A DNA stretch of 10,949 nt from IMG/VR virus record IMGVR_UViG_2630968911_000004, positions 1 through 10,949 of that record. One strand, written 5' to 3'. The position numbers were made by a program, and so were the translations under genes. Positions 1 to 10,949 of this stretch are shown here, in pieces; position 1 is the stretch's first letter, and every line of letters starts with the position of its first letter. The notes below the pieces were generated by a model that was not told where the DNA came from, did not search any database, and saw only the letters and a list, made by a program, of their open reading frames with translations. The DNA is from a virus. Its lineage: Duplodnaviria; Heunggongvirae; Uroviricota; Caudoviricetes.

Positions 1-201
1 TTACCCATTGGCGCGGCTTAAGAGCTTATTTTTGAATTCACAATGGTCACGATATAACCATCTTGCTCGCCCGTGGATAACTTTGGCTTTTGGCAGGTCG
101 CCTGACTTAATCCGGTCATAGATGAAGGTTTTACCAAAGCCAGTATCAGCCATGATGAATTTCAAATCAACCAGTGAATCAGGCTGTAGTTCGTGTTGCA
201 T
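1..201 (-). CDS. torI: Xis-like recombination directionality factor (excisionase) TorI, 66 aa, winged-helix
   Basis: ATG at 199-201 and TAA at 1-3 on the minus strand; GGAGA SD about 9 nt upstream. The 66 aa product matches my recollection of KplE1 TorI in length and sequence and is AlpA/Xis-like. The gene is complete and ends exactly at the window edge. Confidence 0.85.
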   Translation of the reverse strand: MQHELQPDSLVDLKFIMADTGFGKTFIYDRIKSGDLPKAKVIHGRARWLYRDHCEFKNKLLSRANG

Positions 202-220
202 GAGTGCTATCTCCGAATAG

Positions 221-236
221 GGAATCGAACCTGCAA
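221..236 (-). other. tRNA T-arm-like 16-mer (minus-strand TTGCAGGTTCGATTCC) in the torI upstream region
   Basis: Read directly. It contains the GGTTCGATTCC T-loop signature and matches the T-arm segment of argW tRNA-Arg as I recall it, but the flanks are not tRNA-like and the acceptor/CCA end is absent. Confidence 0.3.
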
Positions 237-332
237 ATCAGGTAATAAAAATACGCTCTATGACGGCGATGGTAGATCAGGATATTTTAAGAAACTGACA
301 GGCCTCATCGAGTGTGAGGCTGTATGGCTCCA

Positions 333-677
333 TTATTTCACCTCTTGCTGTGACATTGTTGAAAAACGGATACCAGCTCGTTGCTGCCAGACGATCCAAC
401 CGAGAGTCATATCCCATGCCATGTATTCGTTATCGCCGTTTTTTGCTCTCCGACGATCGACTGTTTTACCGAAACGCTTTTCCATAAATAATTCATAGGC
501 TGCGCGTTCATCTGGCTCAACTTCCAGAGATGCCAGTGCAATCCGTGCCAGTTCTAAATCATTTTCAAGCTCAGCGCGAATCTCAGCGAATGCACTCTGT
601 GTTAAGGCGAACTCAATGCTCTGCACTTTATTCCGTGCGCGCTCAAGCAGTGCATGGTAGTTAATTTCGGTTGTCAT
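333..677 (-). CDS. hypothetical protein, 114 aa
   Basis: Its ATG at 675-677 overlaps the TGA of the upstream PAPS-reductase-like gene (ATGA overlap), supporting translational coupling. No recognisable domain. Confidence 0.65.
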   Translation of the reverse strand: MTTEINYHALLERARNKVQSIEFALTQSAFAEIRAELENDLELARIALASLEVEPDERAAYELFMEKRFGKTVDRRRAKNGDNEYMAWDMTLGWIVWQQRAGIRFSTMSQQEVK

Positions 678-1552
678 ACCCCTACCTCTTCGAATTCCAA
701 TTCCAATTGATCACCCCAGATTTCACATGACTCTGAACACGAACCGGTATCGAATCGCCTGGCCTGTACCATCGCCTGATACAAATTTCTGTAGTCGCTG
801 TTGGCAGACATTCTGGCAATTCCGTCAAGCGTCAGGTGACCACGGTACATAATGTCTTTACCTGTTCTGCGATGACCATCCCTGACGTGTTTGCCTGTAA
901 CCAGCTCATTAAAAACTCGCATCAGACCTGGTTCGTCTTTACATGCAAGCTCCAGCTTTTGCGTTGACTTTTTGATGCAGAAAACACAGTTCCCGAGATG
1001 CTCCGGGATTTGCAAATCAAAAGGTTGTTTTCGCCACCACCGGATAACATCCGACTTATCAAAATCTGACAGCTCGGCAAGATACCGGACGCCCGATTTC
1101 GGTTTCAGCCTACGGGGTTCGTCTGCACGAATACCCAGCCATGTGATGTAATTACCTCGCCCGAAATGGTTATCGCAGTATTTCGTGAAAGGGATGAGTT
1201 TTAGCCTGTCAGTACAGAACGCGCCGCCGATGTATGGCGTGCCGTACTTTTTAACCATGTCCATAAACGGTTTAAGCACCGGCATTCGTGTCTGAATATC
1301 CTTTGGCTCCCATTCTGTATAACCATTTGGCTGCCCAAGCTCAGGATTTATATCGACTTGTAACACAGTTAGTGGTATGTCCCAGAACTTTACAACCTCC
1401 CGGATAAAGCGGTATGTCAGCGGATGTTCGCAACCGGTATCCATAAAGATGTAGCAGACGTTATTGCCAGCCTTTCTTTGTTCTTCCATCAGGTGAACAA
1501 GATATGCGGATGTTCTCCCGCCAGAAAAACTAACTACATGAGTTATGCACAT
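674..1552 (-). CDS. PAPS reductase-like / PP-loop ATP pyrophosphatase family protein, about 292 aa
   Basis: N-terminal VVSFSGGRTSAYLVHLM is a PP-loop SGGxxS-type motif typical of the PAPS_reduct fold; C-terminal Cys clusters (GNCVFC, CSESC). Start chosen at ATG 1550-1552, which overlaps the stop of the upstream HD gene (ATGTGCATAA). The 331 aa track ORF's upstream extension is read through the preceding gene and rejected. Confidence 0.75.
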   Translation of the reverse strand: MCITHVVSFSGGRTSAYLVHLMEEQRKAGNNVCYIFMDTGCEHPLTYRFIREVVKFWDIPLTVLQVDINPELGQPNGYTEWEPKDIQTRMPVLKPFMDMVKKYGTPYIGGAFCTDRLKLIPFTKYCDNHFGRGNYITWLGIRADEPRRLKPKSGVRYLAELSDFDKSDVIRWWRKQPFDLQIPEHLGNCVFCIKKSTQKLELACKDEPGLMRVFNELVTGKHVRDGHRRTGKDIMYRGHLTLDGIARMSANSDYRNLYQAMVQARRFDTGSCSESCEIWGDQLELEFEEVGV

Positions 1553-2079
1553 TTGCGTAATTCCGATAACTCGTTGAAGCGTTCCATAAACATCCCGTAG
1601 GCATGGCCCGGTGCCAGTGGAATAACTTTGAACATCTCTGTTGCCGGGATACCTTCCAGTACAGGCCATAAAGAGCCATCATCAAGCCCGAGATCACGGC
1701 GTTCGGTTGCCAGCATAATGAGATCGGCATATTTCACTGGCGTGCTCATAACAGGAGGTAACCCGTATTTCTCACGGATTACTGCATCTATTTTTTCTTC
1801 CATCCGTTTATAGTCAGGAAGAAGGCGTTTCAGTGGTGCGGGGATGTCCTGGCAATACGCTTCTGTTGCATCATGCATTAACGCTTCAAAAGCAAATTCC
1901 TGCGGCACCAGCTGGCTGCAAAGCACCGCATGTTGGGCGACACTGTAGAAGTGAGAAAGATGACCGGCAAAGCGACAGATATTTGAAAGGGAAACCGCGA
2001 TATCGTTAATCACGATGTCGTCTTTATTTATCTTGTCATAATAAAAATGCTTCCCGGAAAAAGTTTTAATAAATGACAT
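1543..2079 (-). CDS. yfdR: HD-domain phosphohydrolase, 178 aa (YfdR-like)
   Basis: H...HD metal-binding motifs (SVAQHAV, LMHDATEAY). Start set at ATG 2077-2079, preceded by GGAG with 6 nt spacing; this gives 178 aa, the length of K-12 YfdR. The track's longer ORF begins at a non-ATG codon at 2104-2106. Confidence 0.8.
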   Translation of the reverse strand: MSFIKTFSGKHFYYDKINKDDIVINDIAVSLSNICRFAGHLSHFYSVAQHAVLCSQLVPQEFAFEALMHDATEAYCQDIPAPLKRLLPDYKRMEEKIDAVIREKYGLPPVMSTPVKYADLIMLATERRDLGLDDGSLWPVLEGIPATEMFKVIPLAPGHAYGMFMERFNELSELRKCA

Positions 2080-2172
2080 TTTGTTCTCCACGTATATGCG
2101 CTGCACCGCGCTGAGTTTGGGTAAAAGGAAGCCCTCACCATCCGGTGATTATTGAGTTAATTACGTTTCCAT

Positions 2173-2194
2173 AAATGCCCCCGCAGGGGCATTT
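2173..2194 (-). terminator. GC-rich hairpin (AAATGCCCC-CGCA-GGGGCATTT) between yfdQ and yfdR; possible attenuator or intra-operon terminator
   Basis: Perfect 9 bp stem with 4 nt loop read directly. The downstream U-tract on the minus strand is weak (AUUUAUGG), so function is uncertain. Confidence 0.35.
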
Positions 2195-2206
2195 GCAGTA
2201 ATGAAA

Positions 2207-3031
2207 TCAGGCGGTGAAAGTACCAATAAAGGTTTCTACTTTGCTGTCTTTGAATTTCTCAACAAGCAGATCACGAAATTCGTTAGCCATATCTTCCTGC
2301 ACCGCTTCCAGCTGAATAATGCGCAGAACCAGTACAGGACGATCGCCAGTGATAATGCTGAGGCGTAATTTAAACGGACGTTCTTTCAGACCTTCAAACG
2401 GAACGCATTTAAATTCAAATGCCACTGGCATAATGTCTTTGGTCTTCGCTTCGACAGATTCCATCAGGGAGCGTTTGCCGCTGAAGTCATTATCTTCAAA
2501 ATCAGCGGTCTGGTTTGCTTCAATCGTGATTTTACGGATTGCCGCAGCCGCTTTTGTTGCCTGAATGGCGTCACCATTAGCATCAAAGCCCACAAGGTAG
2601 TCGGCCCAGTCTTCAATCCATTCTGCCAGTGATTTCTGGGAGTTACGCTCGCCGTTAACAGACAACAGGGCAGAGAACGGTGCTGTCTTTTTCAGTTTGA
2701 GAGTGGCGGTGTTATCTGCGTGACCTGGTTCATCAATAGTACCCAGGTTAAGCACACTGACGGCACGCATATTATCAGCATCGATAAAGCAGCGGGTGCC
2801 TTCATCTGCAAGATCTTTAGAATAACGGGTAAAGTCATCGATGCTGGCAGTGGAAAGCGCACCACGGAAACGGAAGCGATTTAAATTAAATTTTTCCAGA
2901 TCATGAATGCGGAAATTCTCAGGCAATGCCACAGCATCGGCACCAATCTTACTGATAATTTCATTAACACCCTGAGCAGAAATAAGGGCATGGATTTGAT
3001 TAATTGCGGTTGCGTCTAAGTTCTGAGACAT
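2207..3031 (-). CDS. yfdQ: uncharacterized prophage protein, 274 aa (YfdQ-like)
   Basis: Clean 274 aa ORF with ATG at 3029-3031 and GAGGA SD 7 nt upstream. Length and position (between yfdP and yfdR) match K-12 KplE1 YfdQ as recalled. Confidence 0.8.
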
Positions 3032-3096
3032 AATAAGTCCTCACTATATTAAGATATTCAGTGATGAGATAAATAATCAGTTAATTAAGAACGATA

Positions 3097-3459
3097 TTAA
3101 TGACCTGCTGCGCGGAGTTTTCCGTCAGGCTCACCGGCAAGAGTCAGTAATTGTCCCTGGTCTTCCTGCAGAATAGTCAGGCGACCACCGCGATTGACAT
3201 ACATCGGCGTTTCGGTGGTGTCTTCTTCGGAAATTTTCCCACGGTTAGTCGGGCGAACATATGAGAGTTTGTGTTTGATTTTCACACGGTTCTCATCAAA
3301 TGGTTCGATTTCCAGGTTGAGTGAGACCTTACCTTTGGTTTTCGTGTTCATCACACCGGAAGCGACTTCACTGAGAACTGCGCCGATTTTGGTTTCAAAT
3401 ACGCCGCCGTCCAGCTCCCCGATAAATGCCTGCACATCAGTACTGCGTTCGCTAGCCAT
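3097..3459 (-). CDS. yfdP: uncharacterized prophage protein, 120 aa (YfdP-like)
   Basis: Internal ATG at 3457-3459 preceded by GAGGAG SD; product MASERSTDVQAFIGELDGG... is 120 aa. The track ORF's upstream extension to 3777 is Arg-rich, lacks an RBS and is rejected. Confidence 0.75.
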   Translation of the reverse strand: MASERSTDVQAFIGELDGGVFETKIGAVLSEVASGVMNTKTKGKVSLNLEIEPFDENRVKIKHKLSYVRPTNRGKISEEDTTETPMYVNRGGRLTILQEDQGQLLTLAGEPDGKLRAAGH

Positions 3460-3479
3460 TTTGCTGCTCCTCATCATAT

Positions 3480-3896
3480 CGACCCTGCAAGGCCGATTAG
3501 TTTCTCCACAAAACAGAGAAGAACACCTGCGGTGGCAGCCGCCCGGATGGATTGGGTTATGAGCCCGTCGTCCGGTGATGCTCTTCTCTGTTTTGTAAAA
3601 AGGACGGTACCAGCCGGAAGCAAGGGTACAAACTGGTACCGCCAGGACTACACACAGCATAAAGTTGTGGTGCCGGGTGCCTCCCGGTGCCTGGCGAAGG
3701 TTGCACACCAGACGGGTGGGTATCCACAGAAGGTCGACTGTCAGCCTCAACCTTAACCCGCGTGCGCTGAGCCGCATTCACCACAACGCCAAGGATTCTC
3801 TTTGGTTGAAAATACTTAGCTGTTATGTGCCTGTCTTTTCACCACTTCAGGCTCGGTGGTATCCTTTTAAGCCCGTATACATAAAAGGAAAATCAA
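3480..3896. other. GC-rich non-coding island with nested inverted repeats; candidate structured RNA or cis-acting site
   Basis: No protein-like frame on either strand. 15 bp perfect inverted repeat 3508-3522 / 3582-3596 encloses a 59 nt GC-rich segment with internal GCGG/CCGC and CCGGA/TCCGG pairings; 8 bp stem GGTACCAG / CTGGTACC at 3606-3613 / 3633-3640; tandem CCGGGTGCCT / CCCGGTGCCT. Confidence 0.3.
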
Positions 3897-4142
3897 ATGA
3901 CTTTTGATGAAAAAGAACTTGATAATGCAATTAATAAAATCATCGTAACGTCGCTCTTTTCCTGTCTCAGCGACACTCAGCAGAAACAGTTCTACGAATC
4001 GGCTTTCAACATGATCGAGAGTTGTTGTTTCTGCGATGCCGACGAGTTACCTGAAATAATCAGGAAACAGTTGGCTGATGCTCTTCGAGTGCGACTTTCT
4101 GACCAATTTTCTGAAATGTGCTCTCCGAATTTGGACAAATAG
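3897..4142 (+). CDS. hypothetical small acidic Cys-containing protein, 81 aa
   Basis: ATG 3897 preceded by AAGGAA SD at 6 nt; plausible helical C-terminus. Its 3' end overlaps the convergent minus-strand ORF 4060..4335 by 83 nt, so one of the two may be mis-called. Confidence 0.5.
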   Translation: MTFDEKELDNAINKIIVTSLFSCLSDTQQKQFYESAFNMIESCCFCDADELPEIIRKQLADALRVRLSDQFSEMCSPNLDK

Positions 4143-4335
4143 AAAAAGGCCATTTCCATTCAGGGTCTGATGGAAATACTTCAGCCTGTTCCAAAGCACG
4201 GCGTAAAGAGAATACAACTCCAGCCATAGCCTGATGTTTCCCATTGGTCCAGCTATCGCCGCTCTGATCTACAGGAGCGGCTATGTCGTATGACCAAACG
4301 ACTTCACCACTATTGTTTAAAATCTGGACTTTCAT
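4060..4335 (-). CDS. hypothetical protein, 91 aa
   Basis: ATG 4333-4335 with GGAGG upstream (spacing about 12 nt) and 8 nt downstream of the ClpX-ZBD-like gene, so operonic. N-terminal 60 aa look protein-like; the C-terminal 28 aa are antisense to ORF 3897..4142. Confidence 0.5.
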   Translation of the reverse strand: MKVQILNNSGEVVWSYDIAAPVDQSGDSWTNGKHQAMAGVVFSLRRALEQAEVFPSDPEWKWPFSICPNSESTFQKIGQKVALEEHQPTVS

Positions 4336-4343
4336 TTTGTTCT

Positions 4344-4547
4344 TTAACCTCCAGATTTCCGCGCATCTAAAGGTGCATTCTCATTTGGTGTGAACTGAAT
4401 AGTTGTGCTGATATTGATTAATGCTCCGACACACAAGACTACGCACTCAGAGCAGATAGCAACTTCATCTTTTCCGCCTTTGGCGATGATTTTTTTTGCC
4501 TGCAGCTCGTTTGCGCCACAAAACGAGCATGTGAAATAACGGTTCAT
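4344..4547 (-). CDS. stand-alone ClpX-type zinc-binding-domain (zf-C4_ClpX-like) protein, 67 aa
   Basis: FTCSFCGANELQAKKIIAKGGKDEVAICSECVVLC aligns with the ClpX N-terminal zinc-binding domain as recalled ([32 protein letters not shown]), including all four Cys. Start set at the second ATG (4545-4547), which has a weak GAGAG SD; the first ATG (4565) has none. Confidence 0.65.
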   Translation of the reverse strand: MNRYFTCSFCGANELQAKKIIAKGGKDEVAICSECVVLCVGALINISTTIQFTPNENAPLDARKSGG

Positions 4548-4649
4548 TTGCGCTCTCTTACACATAGTATTTAACGAATCATCCGGTCATTCATACGCCA
4601 CCGGCGGCTACTTCGTGGGCGTCCTGCCTGTTCGTTATCTTTGACATAA

Positions 4650-4678
4650 AATCTAACTTAACTTAGTTATTATGGCAA
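4650..4678 (-). promoter_or_regulatory. candidate leftward early promoter (PL-like) with an overlapping CTTAGTT operator-like repeat
   Basis: Minus strand: -35 TTGCCA (plus 4673-4678), 17 nt spacer, -10 TAGATT (plus 4650-4655). The spacer contains one copy of the CTTAGTT heptamer that recurs in the OR region. No experimental support; sigma-70 fit is moderate. Confidence 0.3.
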
Positions 4679-4709
4679 GAGAAAACACCAAACTTTTCTT
4701 AGTTCGGTG
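4676..4709 (-). terminator. candidate intrinsic terminator downstream of the cI-like repressor
   Basis: Minus-strand RNA CACCGAACU-AAGAAA-AGUUUGGUG (9 bp stem with one G-U pair) followed by UUUUCUCUUG, beginning about 22 nt after the repressor stop. Confidence 0.4.
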
Positions 4710-4731
4710 CCTTAGTTAGAGAAGAGAGGTC

Positions 4732-5358
4732 TTAGAGTTCGTATTGAACTCCTTTGACTACACCAATGATAAGGCAATTACCATTGATAGGGATGTTGGG
4801 ATACCGAGGATTTAATGGCACTAAAAACTTTTGAGGGCCATCGATGACTAATTTTTTTACTGTAGCTTCGTTTGTTCCATCAAGTCGAGCGATGACTATT
4901 TTTCCATGACGAGGTTCTGCATCTGGATCTACAATCACTGTTGCGCCTTCTGGTATTGTTGGGAGGCCATTAGGGTTAGTCATGGAGTCACCTTTAACCT
5001 CTAATGCAAATGAGTTATCACCAATCTTTAATGATGTATCTACCCACTTGTCCACTTCACTAAACACTTCTGCTGCCCTGCACTCAGTAAACTGCCCAGC
5101 CTGAACCCACGATATTACAGGAACTCTGCGCATGTTTGTGACGAGTTTGCCTTCAAACTCAGCACCATAAAGAATGTAATCTATTGACGTATTGAAGAAC
5201 TTCGCTAATTTCGAAAGTGCCTCCCCACCAGGGGTATTGATGTCTTTCTCCCAGTACCCCACAGCAACGTCGCTTACTCCACAAAATTTACCCAATTCTT
5301 TCTGGGACGTTCTGGTAACTCTTCTCAGAGCTTTTATACGCTGACCAACCGTTTCCAT
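4732..5358 (-). CDS. CI-like prophage repressor, 208 aa (N-terminal HTH, C-terminal S24/LexA-type autopeptidase)
   Basis: N-terminal HTH_XRE-like segment (QKELGKFCGVSDVAVGYWEKD) and C-terminal GDSM catalytic-Ser motif with a downstream Lys. Divergent from the Cro-like gene. Confidence 0.9.
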   Translation of the reverse strand: METVGQRIKALRRVTRTSQKELGKFCGVSDVAVGYWEKDINTPGGEALSKLAKFFNTSIDYILYGAEFEGKLVTNMRRVPVISWVQAGQFTECRAAEVFSEVDKWVDTSLKIGDNSFALEVKGDSMTNPNGLPTIPEGATVIVDPDAEPRHGKIVIARLDGTNEATVKKLVIDGPQKFLVPLNPRYPNIPINGNCLIIGVVKGVQYEL

Positions 5359-5455
5359 AGGAGCACCATTTCTTGAATTGCTAAGTAATCTTAGTTTTTA
5401 TTGACCAAAGATAGATTTGTAATTAGCATCTAATAAAACTTAGTTTGGAGGGCGT
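5359..5455. promoter_or_regulatory. divergent OR-like regulatory region between repressor and cro-like gene, with a PR candidate and a palindromic operator candidate
   Basis: Plus strand: -35 TTGACC (5401-5406), 17 nt spacer, -10 TAGCAT (5424-5429), GGAGG SD at about 5447-5451 before ATG 5456. Palindrome CTAAG-TAAT-CTTAG at 5381-5394; further CTTAGTT at 5438-5444. Confidence 0.5.
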
Positions 5456-5656
5456 ATGACAACTGACGATATCGAAAGCTACTTCGGCAGTATTGAGAAA
5501 GTTGCTGCTTTTTTCGGCATAACAACTGAAGCCGTTTATCAGTGGCGAAACCGTCCGGGCCAGTTAATTCCAAAAGGACGTGCAGCAGAAGCTGCATATA
5601 GAACTTGCGGACGGTTGCCATTTAAACCTGAGCTTTATGAAAAATCTAATGGATAA
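5456..5656 (+). CDS. Cro-like HTH regulator, 66 aa (YdaS/Cro family-like)
   Basis: Small basic protein immediately downstream of the PR candidate, divergent from the repressor. Central segment (SIEKVAAFFGITTEAVYQWRNRPGQLIP) resembles the YdaS/Cro-type HTH. Confidence 0.8.
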   Translation: MTTDDIESYFGSIEKVAAFFGITTEAVYQWRNRPGQLIPKGRAAEAAYRTCGRLPFKPELYEKSNG

Positions 5657-6251
5657 ATCGATTAACAGAAACCACAGAACGATGAGGCTAACCGTGGGTA
5701 AGCATCACTGGAAAGTAGAAAAACAGCCTGAGTGGTACGTGAAAGCTGTCAGAAAAACTATCGCAAAGTTGCCGGGTGGTTACGCTGAAGCAGCTGACTG
5801 GCTGGATGTAACAGAGAACGCATTATTTAACCGCCTTCGTGCTGATGGCGATCAGATTTTCCCGCTGGGATGGGCAATGATTTTGCAACGTGCTGGTGGA
5901 ACTCACTTCATTGCTGATGCTGTGGCGCAGTCTGCTAATGGCGTCTTTGTGTCTCTTCCTGACGTCGAGGATGTGGACAACGCCGATATTAACCAGCGTC
6001 TGCTGGAAGTCATTGAACAGATCGGCAGTTATTCAAAACAGATTCGTTCAGCAATCGAAGACGGTGTAGTGGAACCGCATGAGAAGACAGCAATTAACGA
6101 CGAGCTGTATCTCTCAATTTCGAAGCTGCAGGAGCATGCAGCACTTGTCTACAAAATTTTTTGCATTTCAGAAAGTAATGACGCCCGCGAGTGTGCAGCT
6201 CCGGGCGTCGTGGCGTCGATTGCTTCTGGTTGTGGAGAAACTAACGCATGA
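5637..6251 (+). CDS. CII-like regulatory protein (phage 186 CII / Phage_CP76 family-like), about 204 aa
   Basis: Located immediately after cro. Segment [36 protein letters not shown] follows the pattern of the phage 186 CII core as I recall it. Start is uncertain: ATG 5637 or 5649, or the GTG 5580 used by the track; none has a strong SD. Confidence 0.65.
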
Positions 6252-6586
6252 ACAGTTTAACAACACACTACCGTCGCTCGCAACTGATTGCGCTTCCTGT
6301 ACCGGGTGGAAAAGCGAAGGTGGAGTATTGCTATGCAGTAAATGTACCAGGTGACAGGGAAATTGTAACCCACAGCTTTGCAGAGTGGGCTGTGGGTGAT
6401 TTCAACCGGCAGAAGGAGACAGTCCTTTGCGACAAGTTAACCGCTGGTTCAAAGATCACTACGGAGTGCCCGTCAGAGTCATTCGTTGGGAGCCGGAAAC
6501 ACAACGGGTTATCTACCTCCGCGAAGGCTATGAGCATGAGTGCTTCAGTCCGCTCGAACAGTTTCGTCGTAAATTCAGGGAAATAG
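6248..6586 (+). CDS. hypothetical protein; 3' portion is probably out of frame (frameshift or pseudogene)
   Basis: ATG 6248 overlaps the TGA of the CII-like gene (ATGA). The first 60 aa look protein-like but the C-terminal third is Ser-rich and junk-like, while a different frame is clearly protein-like from about 6430 to 6603. Confidence 0.35.
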
Positions 6587-6603
6587 AGGTCGGTCATGAG
6601 CAC
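6427..6603 (+). CDS. candidate small protein, 58 aa, TTG start (not in the supplied ORF track)
   Basis: AAGGAG SD at 6413-6418, 8 nt spacer, TTG at 6427-6429; product [59 protein letters not shown]; TAA at 6601-6603 overlaps the next gene's ATG region. It may instead be the frameshifted C-terminus of the 6248 gene. Confidence 0.35.
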
Positions 6604-6856
6604 TAAATTAACCGGCTATGTATGGGATGGTTGCGCAGCGTCAGGCATGAAATTATCCAGCGTGGCAATTATGGCCCGCCTGGCTGATTTCAGTAATGAC
6701 GAAGGTGTGTGCTGGCCATCAATTGAAACCATTGCCCGCCAGATTGGCGCGGGGATGAGTACCGTCAGAACGGCTATCGCACGGCTGGAAGCAGAAGGCT
6801 GGTTAACGCGTAAGGCGCGTCGCCAGGGTATCCGGAGTAATCCATGCATCGTATAG
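6596..6856 (+). CDS. winged-helix (HTH_36-like) phage replication-protein N-terminal domain protein, 86 aa; possibly truncated
   Basis: AGAGG SD 6 nt upstream of ATG 6596. Segment [50 protein letters not shown] is the wHTH seen at the N-terminus of phage replication initiators. The ORF ends 13 nt into the tail fiber gene, with no replication or structural genes between. Confidence 0.65.
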
Positions 6857-7776
6857 ACACGAAAACCGCGCAGAAGGATAAGTTCGGCGCGGGTAAGAAC
6901 GGTTTTACCCGTGGTAACCCCCAGACCGGCACACCTGCCACCGATCTGGATGATGACTACTTTGACATGTTGCAGGAAGAACTTTGTAGCGTGGTGGAGG
7001 CCTCCGGTGCCAGCCTGGAGAAGGAGCGGCACGACCAGTTGCTTACCGCGCTTCGTGCGCTGCTGTTAAGCCGCAAGAATCCGTTTGGTGATATCAAATC
7101 GGATGGCACGGTGAAAACGGCTCTCGAAAACCTTGGTTTGGGAGATGGCTCGGGGCGTTACAGCAAAACTGTCGTTTTTTCATCGTCGGGTTCATATACG
7201 TGGCCAGCTGACGTAAAACGAATTGACGTTATTCTGACTGCGGCGGGCGGCGGTGGCGGTGGATGTAACGCGGAGAACGCAAATCAGACATTTTCAGGGG
7301 CTGGCGGAGGAGCCGGAGGTACTGTTTTTGCCACTATTTATGCGACAGACAACGATGCCGGGCCAGGAACCTATACAGTGACAATTGGCAGCGGTGGTAG
7401 TGGTGCCAATGGGTCAGGGTCTGGAAATAATGGCGGTAATAGTTCGTTCATGACATTAACTGCGCTCGGCGGCCAGGGTGGGCAATGGGGCGGCGCTACA
7501 AATACCGCTGGCGGGCGCGGTGGCTCAGGCTCTGGCGGTTATAAAACTGAACAAGGCGGAGACGGTTCAGACGGACAGGCGGGCCAGGCGCTATTAGTAG
7601 GCAATGGGGCATCGAGCTATTGGGGTGGCGGCGGCCGCGCTGGGCAACTGAGCGGTAATCCTGGAGTTTGCTCTGGCTCCGGCGGCGGGGGTGCATACGA
7701 TAATAGCTATTCACACACGTCAGGACGTGGCGGGCACGGAGCTAATGGCGTGCTGGTAATTCGGGAGTACATGTAA
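6844..7776 (+). CDS. phage tail fiber protein, 310 aa, Gly-rich C-terminal repeats
   Basis: GGAG SD 6 nt upstream of ATG 6844; the frame has a stop immediately upstream, so there is no hidden N-terminal extension. Long Gly/Ser/Ala/Asn-rich repeats are typical of side tail fiber distal domains. Followed directly by a tail fiber assembly gene. Confidence 0.85.
7121..7146. other. Hin/Gin/Pin-family invertase crossover-like site inside the tail fiber gene
   Basis: CTCTCGAAAACC-TT-GGTTTGGGAGAT with a perfect 12 bp palindromic core AAACC-TT-GGTTT. By my recollection it resembles hixL (TTCTTGAAAACC-AA-GGTTTTTGATAA) and gix, matching about 10 of 12 positions in the left half and 8 of 12 in the right half against hixL. 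Confidence 0.35.
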
Positions 7777-8181
7777 ATGAATGATATCTATGCAGTTGTT
7801 GATAATAACGTTGTTATTAATGTCATTATCTGGGACGGAATTTCTGAATGGAAACCAGAGGCTGGTAATTTAGTTCCGTTAAACGGCGATGCTGGCATCG
7901 GTTGGTCATATTCAGACGGAGTATTTACCGCGCCACCTCCCCCAGAACGCTCTCACAACGCGTTAGTTGCGGAGGCTGAGCTGCAGAAATCAGCACTACT
8001 GACCGTAGCAAATAACGCAATAGCACCGCTGCAGGATGCCGTTGATTTGGAAATGGTGACAGACGATGAACAGGCGTTACTGCTGGCGTGGAAAAAATAC
8101 AGGGTACTGCTGAACCGTGTTGATACCTCAGCGGCACCCGAAATAGAGTGGCCTACGCAACCGGGGGAGCGGGCCAGTTGA
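7777..8181 (+). CDS. tail fiber assembly protein (Tfa/Caudo_TAP family), 134 aa
   Basis: C-terminal [44 protein letters not shown] closely matches the lambda Tfa C-terminus as recalled. ATG 7777 immediately follows the tail fiber stop. Confidence 0.85.
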
Positions 8182-8302
8182 TATCAGGCGCAGCGTCAGC
8201 ATCAACTGCTGTCACTGCGTCGATGTAGTCGAGTACCGCATTCAGCCGCGTTTTTTCATCATCAGTCAGTTTGCGGCCTGCACTTCTCCGTTGACATCTT
8301 TG
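8153..8302 (-). pseudogene. remnant of a second, inverted tail fiber assembly gene (tfaS-like), C-terminal about 40 codons only
   Basis: Minus-strand frame encodes ...[38 protein letters not shown], with the Tfa C-terminal signature (APDI-WP). It has no start codon and is bounded upstream by TAA (plus 8303-8305). It converges on and overlaps the intact tfa 3' end by about 29 nt. Confidence 0.5.
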
Positions 8303-8522
8303 TTATATGGTACAACTGCGCAGAGGCCTGTCTCTTCAATTGTGCCAGTTGAATACTACGATACAACGCTCGGCCTTCCTGTTTGGTGGAACATTACCAC
8401 ATCTACGAGGAAAAGAGCTTACGGTACTAATACTTAGACTTTAAATTTATTTTCGTTTATTAATCATTGAAGTAAAACAAATTATTAGGCGAAAATGTAG
8501 CGAATTTATGTACTTATACATG

Positions 8523-8569
8523 TTACCCTGAAGGAAAATTCTTTTAATAAACCTTCTCCTTCAGGGTAA
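8523..8569. repeat. 13 bp perfect inverted repeat (TTACCCTGAAGGA / TCCTTCAGGGTAA) with a 21 nt AT-rich loop, just 3' of gtrC
   Basis: Read directly. It sits 6 nt downstream of the gtrC stop, at the junction between the AT-rich gtr module and the tail fiber module. Could be a bidirectional terminator or a protein-binding site; no clean U-tract. Confidence 0.4.
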
Positions 8570-8574
8570 AATAA

Positions 8575-10032
8575 TTATTTGACGTAAATGTGGTTTCTGT
8601 ATTTGACAAAAATCACATCACACACACTTTCAATATCTTCAGGTTGACCATAAATTTTCTTCACAATATTCAATTGTTCTTTATTCTCAAGAATAAAGAA
8701 ATTATTTCCTTTGTTATACCATTCGCTATTTGTAAGCCAGTTGTCTCTTTTAATTTCATTGTTATTAAAAAGTATATTTGCTATTTTTATGTCTCCATTC
8801 ACACCAACAGAGTTGGTAAATGCAAAAGGGGCATATCCATAATTTACTTTGTGCTCGTTGATTTTTTCTCTAATACATGATATCTGATTGTATCTATTAT
8901 CAGTGGAGCCATTAATATTTATTGTTTTAATTCCTGATATGATGCCCAAAAAAGCTATTAATAAAATAATGCTTTTTTTATTAAATTTAGATCTTGACAA
9001 AAGAATTACTGCCATAATGAAGACGGGAACAAGGTATCTTATTGTCCATATATTTCTTGGGAGGTTACTACCAATATAAGCAGATGTCATGATTAAAATA
9101 GACAATGACAAACATATATCAATAACGCTTCTGTTTTTAAAAAGATTTCTGAAAGTGAAGTAAATTAATGCAACAACACCAGCAAAGCGTATTGCTTTAG
9201 ATAATAGATGCAGTGATGGTGTTATCTGCTCACCAAATATGTCTGCATTAAAAAACAATAAAGTTCCACTTACTGCGGTATTTATATTAACTAAAATATT
9301 GTCATACTCAACAATCTTTACATCTGTTAGTCCTGGCAATGTAAAGCTTCCAAGGTTTAAAAACAAAAAACCGATCGCCTTGGAAATTAAATATGAAGAA
9401 AACAATCCAGCCATTATAATAAGGTATTTCTTTTTTCTTTCCTTGTGCAACAAAAACATTGCTGCTAATGTTAGCGGTGCAACGTATATATAGACTGAGA
9501 TATTATCGCTAAAAATAGCCATAGAGGACAGTATGGTTGAAAAGTATACAAATAATATTTTTTCTGTTTTAATATACTTTTCTGTAAATATTAAGCATCC
9601 AATGATAAATATGTATGTACCCATGTGAATGCACGCTGAAAGCATTGATGTAACAGCCATGTCAGCAGGAAAAACAAAGTAGAATATAATTAGCGCTAAT
9701 GCTAATGATTTATTTGTAGACAGCCTGTATATCAAAAATATCACAGTAGCATACATCGCTGGTGGTATTATATATGCAAGCTCACTGCTGTAGCCAAATA
9801 ATATAGAGGCGATCGCATAAAAAGATACTTCTGTAAAGTAAAAAGGAACCGTGGATAGCATCCATCCATGAAGTAAGTAATTACCTTCTGACATATCCTT
9901 ACCAAGCAAAAGCACTGTTGCCGCATCTGTATTTGGTGGGAATATGTTTAAGCTGGCAAAGTGATATAGCATAAATAATGACGCAAATAATAAAATTACG
10001 AATATAAATTTAATTTGTTTTTTGAAAATCAT
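8575..10032 (-). CDS. GtrC-type serotype-specific O-antigen glucosyltransferase, polytopic membrane protein, 485 aa (YfdI-like position)
   Basis: Very AT-rich, highly hydrophobic with many predicted TM segments. Its ATG (10030-10032) overlaps the gtrB stop (TAATG), so it is translationally coupled downstream of gtrB, the canonical position of gtrC. Confidence 0.8.
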   Translation of the reverse strand: MIFKKQIKFIFVILLFASLFMLYHFASLNIFPPNTDAATVLLLGKDMSEGNYLLHGWMLSTVPFYFTEVSFYAIASILFGYSSELAYIIPPAMYATVIFLIYRLSTNKSLALALIIFYFVFPADMAVTSMLSACIHMGTYIFIIGCLIFTEKYIKTEKILFVYFSTILSSMAIFSDNISVYIYVAPLTLAAMFLLHKERKKKYLIIMAGLFSSYLISKAIGFLFLNLGSFTLPGLTDVKIVEYDNILVNINTAVSGTLLFFNADIFGEQITPSLHLLSKAIRFAGVVALIYFTFRNLFKNRSVIDICLSLSILIMTSAYIGSNLPRNIWTIRYLVPVFIMAVILLSRSKFNKKSIILLIAFLGIISGIKTININGSTDNRYNQISCIREKINEHKVNYGYAPFAFTNSVGVNGDIKIANILFNNNEIKRDNWLTNSEWYNKGNNFFILENKEQLNIVKKIYGQPEDIESVCDVIFVKYRNHIYVK

Positions 10033-10949
10033 TATTTATTATCCTTTAATATATACTTTGGACGCTGCTTAACCTCAACGTAGATACGCCCTATGTACTC
10101 ACCTAGCACTCCAATACCAATTAACTGGATGCCGCCAAGAAATAATATTGATACAAGAATTGAAGGGTATCCAGGTACATTATTACCAAAAATTAATTTA
10201 TCAATTATCATCCATGAACCGTATGTAAATGATATACATGCAATAAATAACCCAATATAGGTCCACATGCGCAGCGGGAATGTTGAGAAGCTAGTGATCC
10301 CTTCCAGCGCCAAGTTCCAGAGCTTCCATCCATTGAACTTTGTGCTTCCTGCAACGCGTTCTGCTCGCGCATATTCTACGACTTCGGTTCGACCACCAAC
10401 CCAGCTCAGCACACCCTTCATAAACAGGTTTCGTTCTGGCATGAGCTTAATGTTTTCCACTACTTCGCGAGACATGAGCCGGAAGTCGCCAACATTCTCT
10501 TCTATCTGAGGGTTGCTGATTTTGTTATGAAGTTTATAGAACCACTCAGCAGATTTACGCTTCAGCCTGCTGTCAGTGGAGCGGTCAGAGCGTTTAGCCA
10601 GAACCATATCTGCACCGGCCTGCCATTTCTCTATCAAGTGAGGAATAACTTCGATAGGGTCTTGCAGATCAACGTCAATCGGGATAATTGCCTCCCCGGT
10701 AGCATGGTCCAGACCTGCGAACAGGGCGGGTTCTTTGCCGAAGTTACGTGTGAACGACAGCGAAACAACAAGCGGGTCGGCAACAGCAAGCTCGTTGATA
10801 ATTGATTCTGTAGCGTCTTTGCTGCCATCGTTTATGAAGACTATCTCGACTTCATGCTGCTGAAGCCCTTCAAATTCGCGCACAGTTTTATAAAAAATAG
10901 GTATCGTGGCCTCTTCGTTAAAGACCGGAACGACTAAAGAAATTTTCAT
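10032..10949 (-). CDS. gtrB: bactoprenol glucosyltransferase GtrB (GT2 family), 305 aa
   Basis: Near-identity over the full length to E. coli YfdH/GtrB as I recall it ([13 protein letters not shown]..., DGSKDATE..., C-terminal TM helices). ATG at 10947-10949, so the gene is complete and starts exactly at the window edge. Confidence 0.9.

Follow-up and report, generated by a model that had tools for sequence, protein, structure and literature searches.

A yfdR–ninC gene pair in a cryptic Escherichia coli prophage: probably two separable accessory genes, with a candidate counter-defence role for NinC

DndC has been described as a PP-loop ATP pyrophosphatase in which three cysteines hold a 4Fe-4S centre and a further cysteine dyad accepts sulfur (PMC10853773). 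A phage protein, p0018 of Vibrio phage 44E38.1, has been connected with resistance to Dnd-type restriction: Piel et al. transferred p0018 together with p0019 to a relative of this phage in which the Dam domain was already present on its own, and the recipient, Dnd-sensitive before, gained full growth on the Dnd+ host (bioRxiv 10.1101/2021.05.05.442762). This anti-Dnd role of p0018 is cited as accepted elsewhere (PMC10945359). As for the HD-domain protein YfdR of Escherichia coli K-12, it is a weak Co2+-type 5′-deoxynucleotidase (deoxynucleoside monophosphate, dNMP, phosphatase chemistry) and binds DnaA via Phe46 of domain I; yfdQRS or yfdQRT in multicopy inhibits initiation at oriC, and deletion of the yfdQRST cluster is without phenotype (PMC4776307). 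Here we analyse a yfdR gene and the overlapping gene of a PP-loop protein, ninC, in a 10,949-nucleotide (nt) stretch of viral DNA (IMG/VR record IMGVR_UViG_2630968911_000004, positions 1 to 10,949), which in its entirety is called the window below. An initial annotation, made from the sequence alone, had taken the overlap as a sign of shared function; it had also stated that YfdR binds DnaA and that the multicopy cluster inhibits initiation, both of which are borne out by the published work (PMC4776307). Our favoured reading, to which we give a probability of about 0.6, is that yfdR and ninC are two separable accessory genes juxtaposed by lambdoid mosaic recombination, with NinC working by a mechanism proposed below. 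The pair itself is not novel, since RefSeq already has annotations for both proteins.

The strand of the two genes, which the initial annotation had left unnamed, is the minus strand, and their junction is composed as follows:

2079..1543, minus strand: yfdR, HD-domain protein, 178 amino acids (aa) plus TAA stop
1552..674, minus strand: ninC, PP-loop ATP-pyrophosphatase-fold protein, ortholog of lambda NinC, 292 aa plus TGA stop
1543-1552, minus strand: yfdR/ninC overlap of 10 nt, ATGTGCATAA, with the ninC ATG inside the last yfdR codons
2086..2089, minus strand: Shine-Dalgarno GGAG of yfdR, 7 nt 5′ of the yfdR ATG

The overlapping pair is thus real and intact, with the SFSGGRTS motif and the HD dyad present as originally described. 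On the minus strand yfdR ends with ...TTA CGC AAA TGT GCA TAA, and the +1 frame reads ATG TGC ATA ACT CAT GTA GTT AGT TTT TCT GGC GGG; in comparison with lambda NinC, the first three codons (M-C-I) are set by the 3′ end of yfdR. Reading of the sequence before the ninC ATG reveals no canonical Shine-Dalgarno element, only GGA. Because ninC lacks a Shine-Dalgarno sequence comparable to the GGAG of yfdR, translational coupling of the two genes, by termination and reinitiation, is plausible, and to this extent the co-translation proposed earlier is supported.

On the other hand, the yfdR/ninC overlap is not special, since the genes of this operon as a rule overlap at their start and stop codons. 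The ninC stop overlaps the start of the downstream YfdT-like gene (ATGA at 674-677), and the operon reads yfdR-ninC-yfdT-like with two overlaps in succession. The identical 10-nt overlap recurs between yfdR and yfdS of K-12, with a 1-nt overlap between yfdS and yfdT; one of 4 nt joins ninB and ninC of lambda, and in the Shiga toxin (Stx) phage PA2 ninC stands apart from its 5′ gene, the computed gap being ~107 nt. An alignment of the window with K-12 is near-identical to the yfdR stop (AAATGTGCATAA vs AAATGCGCATGA) and unrelated directly after it, the ATG embedded in the 3′ end of yfdR being the start of yfdS in K-12 and of ninC in the window.

The same arrangement was followed through 78 prophage contigs whose YfdR is at least 98% identical. 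The gene 3′ of yfdR is yfdS in 47, ninC in 19, and in the remaining 12 another gene that shares the 5′ end of yfdS; the same overlapping ATG is found at all junctions inspected (the 12 other contigs, K-12 and the window). In 3007 complete E. coli genomes a match falls somewhere within 674-2079, but only 282 of 5426 contain at least 80% of this region; the yfdR-ninC arrangement is an ordinary one (~5% of the genomes). In the sampled genomes that match YfdR only, the overlapping gene is annotated as "phage protein", "YfdS family" or "hypothetical protein", and never as phosphoadenosine phosphosulfate (PAPS) reductase. The yfdR/ninC overlap is therefore a generic cassette junction, and the step from overlap to shared function is not supported, the same ATG serving different 3′ genes and the pair not being co-conserved outside Escherichia prophages. 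More generally, a start/stop overlap in a mosaic phage operon should not be taken to indicate a shared function.

A further discontinuity was observed within the cassettes themselves. On YfdR prophage contigs, no fewer than three distinct proteins (116, 192 and 229 aa) begin with the ~35 N-terminal residues of YfdS (MRMNVFEMEGFLRGKCVPRDLKVNETNAEYLVRKF) and differ from there on, which suggests a second recombination hotspot ~100 nt into the cassette 3′ of yfdR.

We then considered the question from the side of NinC. Its close alleles do keep company with YfdR: among 80 viral contigs with a NinC at least 92% identical to that of the window, YfdR is immediately 5′ in ~62 (~78%). In ~11 of these contigs, however, the YfdR slot is occupied by an unrelated 147-aa gene, the order being yfdP-yfdQ-X-ninC in both cases; this gene, found in Stx phages, was considered as a cryptic HD protein and rejected, as Pfam has no match for it and its PHROGs family, phrog_1363, is one of unknown function. 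Beyond the close alleles the association is lost. Searching by tblastn within ~4 kb, we detected YfdR, YfdQ or YfdP at none of 69 viral NinC loci (NinC 29-80% identical), and YfdR at none of 80 NinC loci in bacterial species-representative genomes. The yfdR-ninC pair has no record in the phage collection. In cultured phages, NinC occurs mainly in Vibrio, Stx2a, Salmonella and Escherichia phages, and YfdR mainly in Bacillus, Caulobacter, Escherichia, Vibrio and Rhizobium phages. A Pfam scan of 118 immediate neighbours of NinC returned DnaB, NinB, helicases, C5 and MT-A70 methylases, NinG, NinE and RdgC, and no HD family is among the 25 families listed of the 56 found. Likewise, no HD-NinC fusion was found among 270 homologs, nor any HD domain in the ten longest of the NinC homologs. 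Co-conservation of the pair, which the initial annotation had set as a check, is thus lost outside Escherichia prophages. A tie between the PP-loop gene and the yfdQRST cluster does not hold either: YfdS of K-12 is a DUF551 protein, and the PP-loop gene is the ortholog of lambda ninC.

These data bear on the idea of a dedicated module, in which the YfdR hydrolase would supply or remove a nucleotide intermediate that NinC adenylates or thiolates, leading to nucleotide depletion or nucleic-acid modification. In its support, the 10-nt overlap and the missing ninC Shine-Dalgarno element make ninC translation probably dependent on yfdR, most close NinC loci have YfdR immediately 5′, both genes are under purifying selection (dN/dS, the ratio of nonsynonymous to synonymous substitution rates, ~0.09 each), and both folds act on nucleotides. 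Nevertheless, yfdS or another gene takes the place of ninC in 59 of the 78 contigs, with the same overlap at every junction inspected; divergent NinC loci have no YfdR; fusions of NinC to an HD domain are missing where eight to methylases exist (see below); and Stx phages carry the unrelated 147-aa gene in the YfdR slot, without overlap with ninC. Together with the restriction of the pair to 282 of the E. coli genomes and its absence from phage records, this makes a dedicated module unlikely. A lineage-specific cooperation of YfdR and NinC is conceivable, the arrangement being common among close alleles.

If the two genes are separable, their functions can be considered one by one. The window PP-loop protein aligns with lambda NinC (ORF-290) over 285 aa without gaps, with 79% identity and 92% positives, and it is ~93% identical to genes annotated as NinC in 933W-like Stx phages. 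In PHROGs it falls into phrog_424 "PAPS reductase" (E 3.2e-91). The motifs of lambda NinC, namely SFSGGRTS, CTxxLK, GNCxFCxKK and SCSESCE, are all present in the window protein; the difference lies in the setting, since lambda ninC follows ninB (ninB-ninC-ninD) in the rightward nin region, whereas the window ninC follows yfdR in a leftward early operon. The literature searched yielded no study of the function of lambda NinC: the matches were surveys of essentiality or of interactions, or used the acronym for something unrelated. The candidate functional residues are located as follows:

1508..1531, minus strand: PP-loop SFSGGRTS (residues 8-15); S10, G12 and S15 invariant in 52 sequences
1214..1216, minus strand: Cys113 in CTxxLK; invariant, in a motif common to PptA of PDB entry 21fy
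977..988, minus strand: C189-x-x-C192 in G-N-C-x-x-C-x-x-K; invariant
725..739, minus strand: C272-x-x-x-C276 dyad on the C-terminal tail; invariant, the tail being of low confidence in the model

Invariance refers to an alignment of 52 NinC sequences reaching down to 28% identity. The invariant residues are S10, G12, S15, E42, T46, F49, C113, K118, G140, R142, D144, E145 and R148 and, in the C-terminal half, G187, N188, C189, C192, K195, C272 and C276. SGGxxS, CxxC and CxxxC were also found in nearly all of 88 NinC representatives inspected, and the dN/dS of ninC against the PA2 allele is 0.088. Far from being degenerate in homologs, an outcome that the initial annotation had considered, the motifs are invariant, and because of this invariance the PP-loop protein is probably an active enzyme. 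One departure is a chimera of 294 aa (cluster P0021, 20 contigs), in which NinC residues 1-230 are followed by a DUF551 (YfdS-like) C-terminus and the invariant CxxxC tail is lost; it probably arose by a deletion that fused ninC to a yfdS-like gene downstream, which would make it an inactivated NinC.

Pfam and PHROGs agree with the domain assignments made at the outset, a PP-loop/PAPS-reductase fold for NinC and a YfdR-like HD phosphohydrolase for its neighbour. The Pfam PAPS_reduct profile (PF01507) matches NinC residues 5-71 over profile positions 2-65 of 175 (E 1.5e-8), with a whole-protein score of 35.3 against a gathering cut-off of 22.5. The AlphaFold model is confident (pLDDT, the predicted local distance difference test, of 91.9) except for the C-terminal tail, where the value drops from 79 to 54 and 43 over residues 261-290. 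Adenosine phosphosulfate (APS) and PAPS reductases are the best PDB matches in both sequence and fold, and the fold is nearest to APS reductase and iron–sulfur (Fe-S) tRNA thiolases; ~164 of the 292 residues superpose on reductase folds, with 21-23% identity. The best solved-structure match to the NinC family profile is chain C of PDB entry 21fy ("PptA", 270 aa; E 8.7e-7), which shares CTxxLK and NCVxCxK with NinC and has a degenerate PP-loop (FSCGAPSA); the literature searched contains no publication on it.

Among defence systems, the best PADLOC match is SspD (E 1.2e-14; NinC residues 5-152 against profile positions 2-125 of 277), which agrees with the SspD/DndC resemblance noted before; the BrxP and DndC matches are weaker, and that to DndC (E 0.005-0.006) has no single stretch that passes. 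NinC belongs to the same superfamily as DndC, SspD and BrxP, and its PP-loop and 3+2 invariant cysteines fit the DndC template. It differs from them in that only its N-terminal half is aligned, in size (292 aa vs 468-481 for the DndC profiles and 779 for BrxP), and in being encoded by phages, not in defence islands. No dndA/B/D/E or sspA/B/C gene is annotated within the 27.8 kb inspected, where the neighbours of ninC are yfdP, yfdQ, yfdR, the YfdT-like gene and torI. By analogy, NinC probably works like DndC and SspD, through ATP-dependent adenylation and sulfur transfer onto DNA, while being a member of neither family.

The comparison with CysH gives a different picture. CysH has a C-terminal catalytic motif of the ECGLH type. 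NinC keeps the SGGxxS PP-loop, but its tail reads GSCSESCE, with no motif of that type, and the C-terminal third and the cysteine pattern of CysH are unlike those of NinC. In addition, NinC reaches 20.5 bits with the NCBIfam CysH equivalog NF002537, against a cut-off of 154. Judged by these sequence features, NinC is not a PAPS reductase of sulfate assimilation, and the phage label "PAPS reductase" should not be taken as marking an auxiliary gene of sulfur metabolism.

What points toward DNA is the association of NinC with adenine methyltransferases. Homolog searches yielded eight clusters in which NinC is fused to an N6-adenine DNA methyltransferase, in both orders and with two methylase families. 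Dam (PF05869) precedes NinC in two clusters (P0122 and P0124) and follows it in five (P0076, P0090, P0123, P0128 and P0158), and in one (P0130) NinC is followed by a D12-class enzyme (PF02086). Continuous open reading frames (ORFs) of 482-599 aa confirm the fusions in the viral set. Counting fused genes and those within ~3 kb, a gene of the Dam family or D12 class is present at ~16 of the 69 viral and ~16 of the 80 bacterial NinC loci.

One of the fusions, P0076, is p0018 of Vibrio phage 44E38.1, which is 55% identical to the window NinC over 96% of the query. Its N-terminal 290 residues form a NinC-family domain with all the invariant motifs, and it differs in having a C-terminal N6-adenine methyltransferase, whereas the window NinC stands alone and ends at residue 292 without such a domain. 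The gene context of p0018 is nin-like, with an O-like initiator/replication gene, DUF6475, p0018 itself (NinC::Dam), a NinB-like gene and NinG. Two other candidates were rejected: p0019 is not a relative of YfdR or of the gene 3′ of ninC but a DUF6475 protein (phrog_10105), and JSS1_004, a published anti-Dnd protein, is not a NinC homolog but an unrelated kinase/shutoff protein. No Dam gene was noted among the window ORFs, although no search aimed at Dam was made.

In the light of these comparisons we propose the following mechanism for our favoured reading. The two genes would be co-expressed only through their shared early leftward operon, the ATG embedded in yfdR starting whichever cassette sits 3′ of it. 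NinC, as an active PP-loop enzyme, would convert ATP to AMP and pyrophosphate and thereby adenylate its substrate. C113, C189 and C192 may hold a metal or a [4Fe-4S] centre, and the mobile dyad C272/C276 may carry sulfur, by analogy with DndC, SspD, APS reductase and TtuA. The enzyme would act on DNA together with the N6-adenine methyltransferase that is fused or adjacent to it in many phages; in the present prophage this partner could be the Dam of the host, or could be absent. NinC would then serve as a phage counter-defence against phosphorothioate-linked (Dnd-type) restriction, and, by analogy with DndC and SspD, a DNA-directed counter-defence enzyme is probably what it is. YfdR would act independently of NinC, on dNMP pools and/or on initiation of replication in the host. 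The by-product of the analysis is a testable hypothesis for lambda ninC, among the last lambda genes without a function; it is put forward because of the methyltransferase fusions, the invariant PP-loop, the five invariant cysteines and the anti-Dnd phenotype of one fused homolog.

Several observations weigh against this reading. Vibriophages with a PAPS-reductase gene infect Dnd+ and Dnd- hosts alike, and no clear role was seen for the gene (PMC10945359). The anti-Dnd transfer moved two genes and used the fused protein, not a stand-alone NinC. Dam genes are common in nin regions, so that adjacency says little by itself and the fusions carry the argument. The lambda nin5 mutant, in which the nin region is deleted, grows normally on K-12, and we know of no unusual modification of lambda DNA. 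The frequency with which YfdR stands directly 5′ of close NinC alleles speaks against separability. Finally, three features of the proposal are inferred: that NinC has an Fe-S cluster, that it is an ATP pyrophosphatase and that its substrate is DNA. We hold a broader form of the proposal only tentatively. It would extend to the whole NinC family, that of lambda included: DndC/SspD-like PP-loop enzymes, probably containing Fe-S, that partner an N6-adenine methyltransferase on DNA, where they would place a protective mark or remove one set by the host, as a widespread counter-defence against phosphorothioate-linked restriction. If it were true, the stand-alone NinC of this prophage would use host Dam or act by itself, with YfdR being irrelevant to its action.

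The relation of NinC to tRNA thiolases raises another explanation, namely that NinC thiolates tRNA of the host or the phage, or aminates it in a lysidine-like way, so that translation is tuned or defences that target anticodons are evaded, the methylase fusions being incidental. We regard this as rather improbable. The Pfam scan detected no RNA-binding accessory domain, and the fusions to DNA adenine methyltransferases, eight in number, apparently independent and covering both orders and two families, are hard to reconcile with an incidental association. Moreover, the gene context of ninC is one of DNA replication and recombination, and the genetic link is to Dnd, a DNA-based defence.

Alternatively, NinC could be a non-catalytic mimic of DndC or SspD that titrates partners in the host, for example IscS/DndA, DndD/E or the DndFGH sensor, and leaves DNA unmodified. 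The likeness to SspD and DndC would fit such a decoy, and so would the anti-Dnd phenotype of the fused homolog, which was reported without a mechanism. However, the PP-loop serines and glycine, K118, D144, E145 and the five cysteines remain invariant down to 28% identity, which is more constraint than a decoy needs, and the family is common among hosts and phages in which Dnd is rarely found, lambda on K-12 being one case. A mimic is accordingly a poor candidate. Least probable is a true PAPS or APS reductase that, as an auxiliary metabolic gene, boosts sulfate assimilation during infection: this reading is suggested by the RefSeq and PHROG name "phosphoadenosine phosphosulfate reductase" and the top PDB matches and has been offered in the literature (PMC10945359), but the PF01507 match limited to residues 5-71, the partial superposition on the reductase folds, the failed CysH equivalog, the absent ECGLH-type motif and a recurrent DNA methyltransferase fusion that would be senseless for sulfate assimilation all speak against it.

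Turning to the partner gene, our favoured reading of two separable genes leaves YfdR with the function described for its K-12 counterpart (b2361), to which it is 98% identical (175 of 178 residues); owing to this identity, the published K-12 data apply to the window protein. The two agree in length, in having yfdP and yfdQ 5′ of them and in the overlapping ATG at the 3′ end, and differ in what follows, which is yfdS (120 aa, DUF551) and yfdT in K-12 and ninC and the YfdT-like gene in the window. YfdR matches RefSeq WP_000008187.1 and phrog_318 "dNMP phosphatase" (E 2.6e-109). Its closest solved relative is Atu1052 (PDB 2gz4; E 5.5e-13), a protein whose function is unknown, and the Pfam matches to YfbR-like/HD_3 are weak and below threshold. 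The HD-domain fold and the reported dNMP phosphatase chemistry are those of YfbR-type 5′-deoxynucleotidases, but YfdR stays under the curated cut-offs of that type (PF12917, 24.3 vs 25.9 bits; NF003009, 19.9 vs 122 bits). The H...HD...D motif is intact (H50, H69-D70, D119):

1870..1875, minus strand: HD dyad H69-D70 (CATGAT), read from the sequence
1930-1932 and 1723-1725, minus strand: putative metal ligands H50 and D119, respectively, assigned by analogy with HD-domain enzymes

The other genes of the leftward operon are the following:

333..677, minus strand: gene downstream of ninC, 114 aa, YfdT-like, phrog_660, related to K-12 YfdT
2207..3031, minus strand: yfdQ (DUF2303), 5′ in the same leftward operon, from Pfam (E 4e-93) and annotation
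3097..3459, minus strand: yfdP (phrog_204), first gene of the yfdP-yfdQ-X-ninC arrangement common to Stx phages, from PHROGs and annotation

Bases 1-3800 of the window are 100% identical in DNA to a prophage remnant of E. coli G4/9, which is bounded by dsdC and tRNA-Arg(argW)/intS, the position of CPS-53/KpLE1 in K-12. The gene order in G4/9 is torI, a hypothetical gene, "PAPS reductase family protein", yfdR, yfdQ and yfdP. The window is a cryptic E. coli prophage of the CPS-53/KpLE1 type. Deletion has removed most of the prophage, its replication and structural genes among it, and what is left is a cryptic remnant. At 6596-6856, a truncated helix-turn-helix gene of replication or regulatory type continues directly into a glycine-rich, tail-fibre-like ORF (6844-7776), and the pieces of G4/9 that match 6596-7776 are partial or pseudogenes according to RefSeq. 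The ORF 5′ of yfdP (3465-3784, minus strand) is annotated, in the G4/9 record identical to it, as a hypothetical gene with a frameshift, and the ORF listed at 3097..3777 is an artefactual read-through from the 3465-3784 region into yfdP.

A promoter and terminator scan of positions 1-3900 gave nothing particular to the yfdR-ninC pair. The 127-nt spacer between yfdQ and yfdR contains a stable hairpin (2173-2194, minus strand) with a 9-bp GC-rich stem, AAAUGCCCC-UGCG-GGGGCAUUU, and no U tract; the folding z-score of the whole spacer is only -1.6. This hairpin may contribute to RNA stability or processing or act as a weak attenuator.

Lambda-type NinC, accompanied by NinB and NinD 96-100% identical to those of lambda, also occurs in assemblies of unrelated organisms (Pseudomonas, Kitasatospora, Oceanobacillus, Bradyrhizobium, Shewanella, Enterococcus and Segatella metagenome-assembled genomes). 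Several of these contigs are ~48.4-48.5 kb long and of very low coverage, and the sequences look like phage-lambda control DNA that has contaminated public assemblies.

The far end of the window (8575-10949, minus strand) is an O-antigen-modification (gtr) module of CPS-53-type prophages. A bactoprenol glucosyltransferase of the GtrB type (10032-10949, minus strand), which extends beyond the window end, is followed with a 1-nt overlap by a polytopic membrane ORF of 485 aa, whose length is unlike that of K-12 YfdI (1332 nt).

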